Of a stretch of DNA of 64,000 bases, positions 25,526-30,498 are shown in pieces. This stretch comes from an uncultured Planctomycetales bacterium (GTDB lineage: Bacteria > Planctomycetota > Phycisphaerae > UBA1845 > Fen-1342): NCBI GenBank assembly GCA_964523405.1, contig CAZGAQ010000004.1:76984-140983 (forward strand). The letters are read 5' to 3'. Under the pieces are notes generated by a model, which was not told where the DNA came from, did not search any database, and saw nothing but the letters and a program-made list of their open reading frames with translations. Both the position numbers and the translations under genes were made by a program. Position 1 is the first letter of the stretch; each line of letters begins with the position of its first letter.

Positions 25526-26638
25526 ATGACAACCCGCAAGTTCCACTCCGCCATCCCGGTGATTCGCAAGACCATCACCGGCTTGGCCTTCAGCGTCGTC
25601 GTCGTCCTGCTGCTCCTGTGGCTGGCCGGCACCTTCCAGCACAAGCTGCCTACCGAACGCGCCCGCGCCGCCACCGGCCGCCCGGTCGGTACGCGCCCGC
25701 TCGTCCCCGTCCGCCAGATCGAGGTCCCCGCCATCGAGGCCGCCGTCGGCACCGTCCGCGCCGTCCAGCAAACCACCATCGTCGCCGAGGTCATGGCCAA
25801 GGTCATCGCCGTCGACGCCCGCGCGGGTCAGCTCGTCCGCAAGGGCGACGTCCTCGTCCGTCTCGATCCCGAGGAACTCCAGGCCCGTCTGCAACAGGCG
25901 GAGGCCGCCGTCGCCGCCGCCACCGCCGCGCGTGACCAGGCCCAGACCGAGTGGGAGCGCGTCCAGGGCCTCTACGCGCAAAACGCCGCCGCGAAGATCG
26001 AGTTCCAGCGCGCCGCGACCGCCCTCAAGTCCGCCCAGGCCGAGCTCGAACAAGCCCAGCAGGTCCGCCTCGCCGCCGCCAAGAACCTCAGCTACACCAC
26101 CATTGTCAGCCCCTTCGACGGCATCGTCATCGACAAACAGGTCGAAGTCGGCGACACGGCCGCCCCGCAGAAGACGCTGCTCACACTCTATGACCCGACC
26201 CGCATGCAGCTCGTCGCCAGCGTCCGCGAGTCGCTGATCGACCGCGTCCACAAAGATCAGACCCTGCCCGTCTTCATTGACGCCCTCCAGCGCCAGTGCC
26301 ACGGCATCGTCACCGAAATCGTCCCCGAATCCGACGTCGCCAGCCGCTCTTTCCTCGTCAAGGTCAGCGGACCGTGCCCACCCGATATCCACTCCGGCAT
26401 GTTCGGCCGCCTGCTCATCCCGCTCGACAACGAGCAGTGGCTGGTCATCCCGCACAGCGCCATCCGCCGCATCGGCCAGCTCGAGGTCGTCGACGTCGTC
26501 GCTCCGGACGGCTCCACACTCCAGCGCCGCGTCGTCCGCACGGGCCGCACGCGCGAGGATGACGTCGAGATCCTCTCCGGCCTGCAGGTCGGGGAACAGG
26601 TGGCGCTGCCCGCCGGCGCCGGGGAGCACGCCTCATGA
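25526..26638 (+). CDS. efflux RND transporter periplasmic adaptor (membrane fusion protein)
   Basis: N-terminal TM, coiled-coil hairpin (LQARLQQAEAAVAAATAARDQAQTEWERVQGLYAQNAAA), beta-barrel/MP domains. Its stop overlaps the RND start as ATGA. Confidence 0.85.
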   Translation: MTTRKFHSAIPVIRKTITGLAFSVVVVLLLLWLAGTFQHKLPTERARAATGRPVGTRPLVPVRQIEVPAIEAAVGTVRAVQQTTIVAEVMAKVIAVDARAGQLVRKGDVLVRLDPEELQARLQQAEAAVAAATAARDQAQTEWERVQGLYAQNAAAKIEFQRAATALKSAQAELEQAQQVRLAAAKNLSYTTIVSPFDGIVIDKQVEVGDTAAPQKTLLTLYDPTRMQLVASVRESLIDRVHKDQTLPVFIDALQRQCHGIVTEIVPESDVASRSFLVKVSGPCPPDIHSGMFGRLLIPLDNEQWLVIPHSAIRRIGQLEVVDVVAPDGSTLQRRVVRTGRTREDDVEILSGLQVGEQVALPAGAGEHAS

Positions 26639-29600: not shown

Positions 29601-30498
29601 ACGCATCGCCTACGTCTTCGCCGAAACCGCCGGCCGCACCCCCGCCGAGTGCGTCGTCGACATCCAGGCGGATCAGCGGATGCTTGGCTCGGGAGCTGAA
29701 GCAAGCAGCCATGCAATCGTCGCGCCAACGTCACCGGCTGCACCAACTGCGCAGGCCGCACCAACTCCCCTCCCTCTTAGGGAGGGGGCAGGGGGAGGGT
29801 CAGAGCACTCGAACCGCGGAGCGCCCACCCCGCGCCCCGTCGCCGGTCGCACGTTCCTGACCAGCGGCGGTGACATTCTCTGGTCCGTCCCCGCCGGCAT
29901 CCGCGTCAACTTCGCCGGCGAGGGCGAATGGCAGATCACCCTCGACGTCTTCCGCGACCTCGGCCTCGCCTTCGCGGCCGCCCTCGTCGGCATCTACATC
30001 CTGCTCGTCGCCCAGATGGATTCGTTCGTCATCCCCCTCGTCGTCATGATGGCCATCCCCCTCACCGTCATCGGCATCATGCCCGGCTTCTGGCTGCTCA
30101 ACCTCTTCGCCCACCCCGTCGGCCCCTACGCCGACCCCGTCCTCTTCACCGCCACCGGCATGATCGGCATGATCGCCCTCTCCGGCATCGTCACCCGCGA
30201 CAGCATCATCCTCGTCGACTTCATCCACCTGTCGCTCAAACGCGGCCGCTCCCTCTTCGACGCCATCATGGAAAGCCGCGTCGTCCGCCTGCGCCCGATC
30301 CTGCTCACCACCGGCGCCGCCATGCTCGGCGCCGCCCCGATCACGATCGACCCGATCTTCTCCGGCCTGGCGTGGGCCCTGATCTTCGGCCTCTTCGCCT
30401 CGACCGTCTTCACCCTCTTCGTGATCCCCGTCGTGTACTGGCTGCTCTACGCGAACAAGCCCGGCCACGGCCTGCCGATGGTCAACGAAAACGAATAG
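26635..30498 (+). CDS. efflux RND transporter permease (AcrB/CzcA superfamily) with repeat-derived insertions
   Basis: 12-TM RND architecture with conserved TM4 and porter-domain motifs. 1287 aa versus ~1050 typical, owing to four in-frame Pro/Gly-rich inserts. Confidence 0.9.
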   Translation: MSTSPSGLPAPSQHAFTDRIVRTFLDSNLSLILLVLAVVLGAAALVLTPREEDPQIVVPLADVLVSFPGHSATEVEQLVATPLEKILYQIDGVEYVYSMSRPDEAVITVRFYVGEDRERSLVKLYKKIDENVDIAPPGVTGWVVKPVEIDDVPIVTLALTGKTLTAAAASVPLPPRERAGGGSEPSSAAPTPLPPREGAGGGSKPPTATTCPTPATPTVASSTTTADEYTLRRVAEECVERLAAVKNVSRAYVIGGRPRVAQIYLDPDRMSARGATPLSIQQALAAANVLVQAGDFSRNDTVYRVDAGKSLAHVDELKTLVIGVWGENPVFLKDVAEIRDGPAEATSYVRHGWGPGRGFTHRTGFPGTAVSGDEFDTAVTNATAHVSAEPTPLPPGEGVGGGSEPPTATTSPAVTLALAKKKGANAVWVAEDILRTAADLQRDVIPDDLQLVITRNYGLTADDKVNELVEALAVAIFIVIALLTLGLGWREALIVAVAVPVVFGLTLAVNLLLGYTINRVTLFALILSLGLLVDDPIVDVENIARHFALRKKATRHIVLEAVAEIRPPLITATLAVIVSFLPMFFITGMMGPYMRPMALNVPVTMIMSMVVAFTITPWLTYHVLKRHYGKHQGNEGSGDQGIKAGPEPSHESEDLETLRRSALYRAFYPLMAPLLHSRRAAWLFLGVMALLMVGAAGLAAIRAVPLKMLPFDNKNELSLVLDFDEGTSLERSDAAVRDFEAYLAGVPEVTDFTSYVGLASPMDFNGLVRHYYLRSGANVAEIRLNLVGKKNRASQSHALGLHLRDDLTALAQRHQATLKIVEVPPGPPVIATLTAEVRGRPDHTYADLMAAAKTVRARLEREPGVVDVDDTIEARQTRLVFVADKEKAALSGVTTADIASTLRIALGGESAGLLHVDGERNPLQIELRLPEALRSSRLDLTRLQVQGRRSAAGATPPGSGAGDRLIPLAELGRWEEQTVDQTIYHKNLERIAYVFAETAGRTPAECVVDIQADQRMLGSGAEASSHAIVAPTSPAAPTAQAAPTPLPLREGAGGGSEHSNRGAPTPRPVAGRTFLTSGGDILWSVPAGIRVNFAGEGEWQITLDVFRDLGLAFAAALVGIYILLVAQMDSFVIPLVVMMAIPLTVIGIMPGFWLLNLFAHPVGPYADPVLFTATGMIGMIALSGIVTRDSIILVDFIHLSLKRGRSLFDAIMESRVVRLRPILLTTGAAMLGAAPITIDPIFSGLAWALIFGLFASTVFTLFVIPVVYWLLYANKPGHGLPMVNENE
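27146..27250. repeat. two tandem copies of GC-rich palindromic element (tcccctccctcccagggagRgggcagggggagggtc), in frame in RND gene
   Basis: Copies at 27146-27188 and 27206-27250 translate to VPLPPRERAGGGSEP and PTPLPPREGAGGGSKP. Confidence 0.8.
27806..27850. repeat. third in-frame copy of the same palindromic element
   Basis: ctcccctccctcccggggagggggtagggggagggtcagagcc translates to PTPLPPGEGVGGGSEP. Confidence 0.8.
29764..29808. repeat. fourth in-frame copy of the same palindromic element
   Basis: actcccctccctcttagggagggggcagggggagggtcagagc translates to PTPLPLREGAGGGSEH. Confidence 0.8.

Follow-up and report, generated by a model that had tools for sequence, protein, structure and literature searches.

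Repeats of the BoxC/PIT/TM kind have been known since the 1990s, and Hoyne and Maher (2000-2002) reportedly described a G/C-rich class II intrastrand triplex motif of Escherichia coli. To our knowledge, the function and the spreading mechanism of this class have never been established, and it has no known transposase. Two other groups of short bacterial repeats are relevant here: Rickettsia palindromic elements (RPEs), which are about 100-150 bp long, are restricted to Rickettsia and insert in frame; and miniature inverted-repeat transposable elements (MITEs), which are 70-300 bp long and carry terminal inverted repeats and target-site duplications. Here we analyze a 64,000-nt stretch of the genome of an uncultured Planctomycetales bacterium (contig CAZGAQ010000004.1, positions 76,984 to 140,983; hereafter the window, which is the part of the host genome that was examined). 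In this window a resistance-nodulation-division (RND) efflux permease gene carries four in-frame copies of a three-stem repeat whose predicted fold places it in the BoxC/PIT/TM class. Our reading, to which we give a probability of roughly 0.7, is that the copies are real and are tolerated as linker insertions in a working pump gene.

The triplex motif TMECO follows the pattern CCCTCNCCC N3-6 GGGNGAGGG N3 GGGNGAGGG and has 3610 occurrences in 262 proteobacterial genomes; in E. coli K-12 every occurrence is intergenic. No mobility genes accompany it, it is associated with variability of the surrounding genome, and in vitro data exist for TMECO (Holder 2015, PMC4666352). Repeats of Methanomicrobiaceae (rPQS) that combine a potential G-quadruplex with an adjacent C-tract show an equilibrium of hairpin, antiparallel triplex and G-quadruplex (G4) in vitro, and all of them are intergenic (Chashchina 2021, PMC8044849). 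Repetitive extragenic palindromes (REPs) can be intragenic and in frame, and their hosts are often DNA replication or repair genes, including that of the error-prone polymerase dnaE2; among the genomes rich in them is that of the verrucomicrobium Opitutus terrae (Di Nocera 2013, PMC3733652).

The repeat in the window consists of three stems, CCCCTCCCT-CCC-AGGGAGGGGG-CA-GGGGGAGGGT, in the order pyrimidine stem, complementary purine stem, and second purine stem mirroring the first. Blocks 1 and 2 make a hairpin of 9-10 bp, and blocks 2 and 3 form a perfect mirror repeat, so that a hairpin is followed by a mirror-repeat G-stem; the final T of the repeat faces the A with which the purine stem begins. 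Such an arrangement predicts a purine-motif (class II) intrastrand triplex and also fits a putative four-run G-quadruplex. Judged from its sequence, single-stranded DNA of the repeat could adopt the hairpin, the triplex or the G-quadruplex, the last two being predicted structures. We scanned the window for pyrimidine-purine-purine (Y-R-R) motifs with stems of 8-12 nt and at most one mismatch, a scan modelled on the published ITxF rules, which define class II as consecutive pyrimidine-purine-purine blocks with stems of 6-15 nt, at most one mismatch and loops of 1-6 nt (Holder 2015). Five of the seven window copies were recovered, their stems measuring 8-10 nt and their loops 2-5 nt, against none in 10 shuffles; all five motifs fall within the RND permease gene and imuB. 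The window element thus has the ITxF class II block structure, and a Y-R-R motif is also present in loci L001, L140 and L141.

The same architecture recurs well beyond the window. A search for the hairpin core in GTDB representative genomes returned at least 119 stretches, and the 124 matches listed were scored for a third stem. It was present with at most one mismatch in 94 of them (81 perfect, 13 with one mismatch), mostly after a 3-nt loop; shuffled controls gave no perfect third stem and one with a single mismatch. In these 94 listed matches the third-strand base facing the internal A was A 80 times and T 14 times, and never C or G, which matches the allowed reverse-Hoogsteen triads; the third strands fit the class II rule of a strand antiparallel to the duplex purine strand and built from G.G:C, A.A:T or T.A:T triads only. 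More than half of the 30 listed matches that lack a third stem have, as read by eye, a mirrored C-tract upstream, meaning that the motif lies on the opposite strand. A comparison of the repeat with Rfam gave nothing at gathering thresholds and only chance-level matches below them (E up to 10), and a tRNA/tmRNA scan found none.

By its predicted fold, then, the element is a member of the general BoxC/PIT/TM class of class II triplex motifs, outside strict TMECO. It shares with BoxC, PIT and TMECO the architecture, the dispersed multi-copy occurrence with copies often adjacent, the lack of an associated transposase, and loci that differ between close strains. Its stems (CCCCTCCCT/AGGGAGGGG) differ from those of TMECO (CCCTCNCCC/GGGNGAGGG), and whereas TMECO is intergenic in E. 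coli K-12, all seven window copies are intragenic and translated in frame. Strict TMECO identity was therefore rejected on two grounds, the intragenic location and the absence of any match to the TMECO pattern in the window. As a separate observation, the strict TMECO pattern does occur in seven fetched loci (L017, L043, L052, L063, L117, L120 and L129), on Anaerolineae and Phycisphaerae contigs where it often adjoins the CCCCTCCCT family; its published distribution is proteobacterial. The Methanomicrobiaceae repeats (PMC8044849) resemble the window element in having four G-runs, a complementary C-tract and the same GCA central loop variant, but their block order is reversed (G-G-C), their hosts are archaeal, and they are all intergenic.

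Likeness to RPEs is one of behavior. Like intragenic REPs and RPEs, the window copies are short palindromic repeats that lie in frame, often several per gene, in genes that stay functional, and there is a likeness of host genes as well: REPs occur in DNA-repair genes including dnaE2, and the window element in imuA/imuB genes. Neither REPs nor RPEs have a third, mirror-repeat stem. REPs are marked by a GTAG or CGTC tag and associated with RAYT transposases, but neither tag is conserved in the window element: the flanks of the window copies and of the 124 listed GTDB matches read AACT, AACC, GATT and similar, with CGTC only upstream of copy 1. REP/REPIN identity was rejected on this lack of a conserved tetranucleotide at the palindrome end. 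A comparison with RPEs had been drawn in an earlier reading of the window made from the letters alone (the sequence-only reading); it stands as an analogy, restricted to in-frame insertion, and not as membership, given a unit of 35-60 nt and a Planctomycetota-like host. The element is also small, non-autonomous, dispersed and stem-loop-forming like MITEs (Correia/NEMIS, ERIC, Nezha), which are sometimes co-transcribed with genes, but its unit is shorter and has no terminal inverted repeats outside its hairpin. The only MITE-like boundary trait is an ambiguous 8-nt direct repeat, CCGCCGCG, at one polymorphic copy, which may be a target duplication or a substrate for slippage deletion.

The permease gene is a single uninterrupted open reading frame (ORF) of 1287 codons. 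Its product matches Pfam ACR_tran (E=4e-134) in four stretches whose breaks are the insert sites, AcrB/MexB-type pumps in the PDB, and RND_permease_2 of NCBIfam (9e-111, under the curated full-length cut-offs); the ACR_tran match is full-length and covers two porter/transmembrane halves, as in RND (AcrB/AcrD/AcrF) permeases. A scan for a 35-mer that allowed three mismatches gave matches with at most two, starting at 27148, 27208, 27808 and 29767, all on the plus strand, against a chance expectation for the window of 0.00 (100 shuffles), and all four copies lie in codon phase 0. They translate as VPLPPRERAGGGSEP, PTPLPPREGAGGGSKP, PTPLPPGEGVGGGSEP and PTPLPLREGAGGGSEH, with the common pattern (V/T)PLP(P/L)(R/G)E(R/G)(A/V)GGGSE/K; peptides across the copy junctions include AAPTPLPPR and EGAGGGSKPPTATT. 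Copies 2 and 3 are 89% identical across 79 nt, flanking codons included. The sequence-only reading had recognized an RND permease with four in-frame copies of a ~40-bp palindrome in its periplasmic porter loops. The gene assignment, the phase and the location all hold; its start coordinates were 1-3 nt off, and its palindrome is a three-stem motif of triplex/G4 type with a shared unit longer than 40 nt. All seven copies found in the window lie within the permease gene and imuB (Table 1).

Table 1. Repeat copies, host genes and insertion sites in the window (window coordinates; aa, amino acids; TM8, transmembrane helix 8).
Feature	Position	Strand	Basis or remark
RND efflux permease CDS, intact, 1287 aa	26635..30498	+	Pfam, PDB and NCBIfam matches; dN/dS 0.09
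Triplex-motif copy 1, degenerate; first G-stem AGGGAGAGG	27147..27182	+	Fails the triplex scan at ≤1 mismatch
Triplex-motif copy 2, TCCCCTCCCT-CCC-AGGGAGGGGG-CA-GGGGGAGGGT	27207..27241	+	Y-R-R scan: 10-nt stems, loops of 3 and 2 nt
Triplex-motif copy 3	27807..27841	+	35-mer match, Y-R-R scan
Triplex-motif copy 4, loop 1 CTT	29766..29800	+	35-mer match, Y-R-R scan
Variable loop 1, aa 162-226, beta-strand to helix, AcrB 142/143, PN2; copies 1 and 2	27118..27312	+	Alignment A1, AlphaFold, AcrB alignment
Variable loop 2, aa 360-411, beta-hairpin turn, AcrB 283/284, PN2; copy 3	27712..27867	+	Alignment A1, AlphaFold, AcrB alignment
Variable loop 3, aa 1014-1066, helix to strand, about AcrB 849-853, PC2 before TM8; copy 4	29674..29832	+	Alignment A1, AlphaFold, AcrB alignment
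60-nt unit (copy 1 and flanks) missing in sister strain, bounded on both sides by 8-nt direct repeat CCGCCGCG	27134..27193	+	DNA alignment with L001
Membrane-fusion (periplasmic adaptor) gene of the RND operon	25526..26638	+	HlyD_D23 2.5e-16, HlyD_3 1.9e-15 (Pfam)
imuB-like Y-family polymerase, 675 aa, second host gene	39645..41672	-	Pfam IMS 3e-14; homologues named ImuB
In-frame imuB insert of 113 aa, aa 350-462	40287..40625	-	Alignment A4; absent from 11 aligned homologues
Triplex-motif copy 5, antisense to imuB, read LPKPLPGREGS	40341..40373	+	Hamming and Y-R-R scans
Decayed related copy, 5 mismatches	40461..40493	+	Hamming scan
Sister-subfamily triplex-motif copy (CCCCTCCCC / GGGGAGGGG), read PQPLPKGEG	40503..40534	+	Hamming and Y-R-R scans

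We mapped the insert sites by aligning E. coli AcrB to the permease family; the assignment to PN2, PN2 and PC2 follows what we take to be the AcrB subdomain boundaries. The orthologue comparison that the sequence-only reading had proposed was informative. Orthologues at 65-79% identity, from Phycisphaerae or other Planctomycetota metagenome-assembled genomes (MAGs), lack the repeat at the three sites yet are length-variable exactly there (alignment A1). The copies sit in loops that tolerated changes in length beforehand. These orthologues are 1139-1200 aa long, which is the appropriate baseline for a protein previously described as ~1287 instead of ~1050 aa; the size of 1287 aa itself is correct, and only some of the additional residues come from the copies. 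An AlphaFold model of residues 1-1200 of the 1287, run as a monomer, is essentially coil with pLDDT below 50 at residues 164-224, 373-407 and 1017-1062, which are the insert-bearing loops, while the porter-domain elements that flank them have pLDDT of 70-89. The model thus depicts the insert loops as putatively disordered surface loops.

Related insertions occur at other places in the permease family. The orthologue P0021 of another Phycisphaerae MAG (locus L141, 72% identity) carries the same repeat family antisense in the cytoplasmic loop between transmembrane helices 6 and 7 (TM6-TM7), with perfect 10-nt stems, while its PC2 loop contains a TMECO-like motif; the gene also has two in-frame occurrences of a composite of ~85 nt. 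Beside these triplex motifs, the PC2 loop of P0021 also contains C16...G17...C12 tracts (L141 6053-6091) that read in frame as poly-Pro/poly-Gly, and that could be real or a homopolymer assembly problem. In the window permease, the cytoplasmic TM6-TM7 loop (28536-28570) contains GGGATCA(A/G)GG three times, encoding EGSGDQGIK; akin peptides, RDQG or GDRGSG, are found in the orthologues P0007 and P0027 and in the ImuB homologue P0210. These peptides may reflect one more small repeat family inserting into loops.

The closest relative of the permease, P0001 (1267 aa, 98% identity), comes from a JGI metagenome (locus L001) whose gene is 98.3% identical to the window in nucleotides. It has copies 2, 3 and 4 at identical positions and lacks exactly the 60 nt that hold copy 1. 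The sister imuB has 42 nt more at its insert, equal to another unit; both strain differences are multiples of three. The repeat loci are unstable, gaining or losing units between close strains. A plain tandem duplication was rejected as the origin of copy 1, since copies 1 and 2 differ by ~13% and the strains by 1.7%; either copy 1 is an old duplicate, recently deleted in the sister, or it was inserted independently. These data also bear on whether the copies arose artificially, through misassembly of repeat-rich metagenomic reads, an objection that the sequence-only reading had anticipated. The contig is metagenome-assembled and the tandem number at site 1 differs between the two assemblies. 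However, three copies recur at the same positions in an independent assembly, the frame is preserved throughout, and some 8 of 60 positions distinguish copy 1 from copy 2, which makes assembler collapse or duplication unlikely; we regard an artefact as scarcely credible.

The comparison with L001 further speaks to the state of the gene. The two permease genes differ by 64 nucleotide changes, 50.5 synonymous and 13.5 non-synonymous, giving a ratio of non-synonymous to synonymous rates (dN/dS) of 0.09. Both strains have at least three copies, and the gene has therefore been under purifying selection with inserts in place. The presence of four foreign inserts, together with NCBIfam scores under the curated full-length cut-offs, might be taken as signs of a young pseudogene, and the sequence-only reading had left inactivation of the pump as its alternative to toleration of the inserts as surface linkers. 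Yet the 1287-codon frame is intact in the sister strain too, so that two independent assemblies and the dN/dS value leave inactivation unsupported. The permease retains every invariant motif of its clade (A1), and the adaptor gene is likewise intact and is translationally coupled to the permease gene, into which its 3' end reaches by 4 nt; the adaptor-permease gene order is also found in L001 and L141. Loss of function is very improbable, and toleration as linkers, the other half of that earlier alternative, is supported by the intact frames, the low dN/dS and the low-pLDDT coil loops.

How a gene may absorb such insertions is suggested by the composition of the repeat. The stems are all-pyrimidine or all-purine and cannot encode stop codons; in six-frame translation they are stop-free throughout, any stop codon comes from a loop or a flank and is always outside the frame in use, and a clean consensus copy has a stop in one of six frames, derived from its flank. 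We propose that the copies were inserted, or locally duplicated, within the coding sequence of this Phycisphaerae-like genome. They would be about as likely to land in coding DNA as in any other DNA, and would survive where their length, frame and location are harmless, with only length changes in multiples of three persisting. The encoded peptides, composed of Pro, Leu, Gly, Arg, Glu and Ser, would be flexible and would sit in surface loops that tolerate length variation; the pump would stay functional, with the copies as passive loop or linker expansions. The non-B-DNA potential of the repeat (hairpin, triplex, G4) may promote slippage or recombination and hence indels.

Several points weigh against our reading. 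The AlphaFold model is weak (mean pLDDT 58.7, truncated monomer, shallow alignment), and the exposure of the predicted surface loops in the trimer or the adaptor complex lies beyond a monomer model. Pump activity is presumed from sequence constraint. The 60-nt and 42-nt strain differences may each be a gain or a loss, in either direction, and a tandem collapse of 60 nt in the short-read JGI assembly is possible. Triplex formation by TMECO went undetected in vivo (Holder 2015, PMC4666352). Finally, all six clean window copies share an equivalent phase, read as P-L-P...(R/G)-E-G, in either orientation relative to their gene, which passive tolerance alone does not predict. Copy sets in other MAGs also share phase, although some of these events are non-independent (paralogues, intragenic duplicates). 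A phase preference would hint at targeted insertion or selection.

The shared phase, whatever the orientation, is what one would expect if the Pro-rich PLPPREG peptide were a protein-level module, selected for binding or spacing and recombined between loops; the flanking codons shared by copies 2 and 3 over 79 nt fit as well. The wider distribution of the element is at odds with this. Among the listed GTDB matches the core is found in Planctomycetota, Anaerolineae (Chloroflexota), Prevotella and Chitinophagaceae (Bacteroidota), sphingomonads, Verrucomicrobiota and other lineages. Of 131 listed core matches, 31 are spanned by an ORF whose GC1/GC2/GC3 signature is of the coding type on either side of the match, and the other 100 are spanned by no such ORF. 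Intragenic copies elsewhere are read in all three sense frames (0, 1, 2) and in two antisense frames (0 and 2), giving peptides such as SPPSQGGAGGGS, PSLPGRGRGRV and PSLGGRG; it is the DNA that is conserved, and no single peptide. The peptides are predicted to be disordered, and the hosts are unrelated (RND pump, ImuB, MnmG, AlaRS, DnaG). We consider a selected peptide module decidedly improbable.

For four of these 31, Pfam confirmed that the copy is intragenic, the hosts being MnmG (within its GIDA domain), AlaRS, DnaG primase and a GH115 hydrolase. That a lineage would keep strictly to one reading frame was rejected, as one MAG, PL23b_bin.19, uses two different frames. Two loci carry several copies: in a Prevotellaceae MAG (L036) dnaG has the element at three separate places, and in a Planctomycetales MAG (L010) mnmG has two tandem copies within the FAD/GIDA domain. 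A metagenome scan for the 34-nt window-specific form returned 19 contigs, none of which has the flanks seen in the window. The sequence-only reading had named restriction of the element to this one gene as something that would count against it; the element also occurs in imuB of the window and widely in other genomes. We suggest tentatively, at a little under even odds, that BoxC/PIT-type motifs are a cross-phylum class with stop-free stems that routinely settles in frame within genes, as roughly one in four of the sampled copies would have done (those in mnmG, alaS, dnaG, imuB and RND pumps included), goes on gaining and losing units there, and would act as a general generator of disordered-loop insertions and loop-length polymorphism in conserved bacterial proteins.

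The copies could instead be kept for a role of their nucleic-acid structure, either translational pausing at domain boundaries, by a stable hairpin together with Shine-Dalgarno-like GGAGG runs in the mRNA, or an adaptive hot spot of loop length. The RNA hairpins of the copies are indeed stable (-24 to -33 kcal/mol; copy 2, -30 kcal/mol), GGAGG is present in the G-stems, and the copies lie between structural elements of porter subdomains. Units are gained or lost in frame between strains in both host genes, and the motif class is tied to local genomic variability (Holder 2015, PMC4666352). But the folding z-scores against shuffled sequences, from -0.7 to -3.5, are modest, orthologues that share 65-79% identity function with no repeat at these sites, and a single RNA-level role sits poorly with copies that are sense in the RND gene and antisense in imuB. 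PIT elements of E. coli, as far as the citing paper conveys, have neither promoter/terminator activity nor an effect in vivo (cited in PMC4666352). A structural role is unlikely on this evidence, and passive linker insertion remains our preferred account.

The second host gene, imuB, carries its copies in a 113-aa insert that lies between conserved blocks and is made of a repeat cluster read antisense; ImuB homologues of the window protein are mostly 440-660 aa long. Upstream of imuB, an ORF at 41596-43260 (-) matches ImuA over its C-terminal third only (aa 395-517). Before the matched part it contains a second palindrome family, CCACTGCT(N5-6)AGCAGTGG, translated in frame as PLLTEQWHTGG and similar peptides (42184-42210, 42269-42297 and 42413-42439); this family is also present at 33144-33216 and 63541-63569. 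The imuA-imuB pair appears to be decorated by two different repeat families. A variable region of ImuB (aa 564-586; window 39900-40000) has, in addition, the tandem peptide GGRDAHPTLPGGRDAHPTL, which probably derives from another short GC-rich repeat resembling GGGCGTCCCGCCC.

Elsewhere in the window we observed a c-di-AMP riboswitch of the ydaO/yuaA type at 33442-33609 (-), scoring 57.4 bits against a gathering score of 38. Two paralogous regions, 51900-53800 and 55000-57000, consist of repeats with a period of 138 nt (46 aa), whose conserved core is W-N-G-S-x-W-like, and are presumably large repeat proteins.

In the literature searched we found no description of BoxC/PIT/TM-class repeats translated in frame, and a literature search for the encoded peptides found nothing; within that literature, this is a known element class in a previously undescribed setting. 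Practical consequences follow for genomes that carry it. Annotation and homology searches break at the inserts, where hidden Markov model matches are split and scores fall under curated cut-offs, and short-read assemblies may mis-count tandem units. For the organism, the loop length of the pump is a strain-variable marker. More broadly, in-frame BoxC/PIT/TM repeats in conserved proteins of several phyla link non-B-DNA repeats to protein evolution through loop and linker expansion, and stems that consist only of purines or only of pyrimidines, and are therefore free of stop codons, offer a simple possible reason why some repeat families live in genes.

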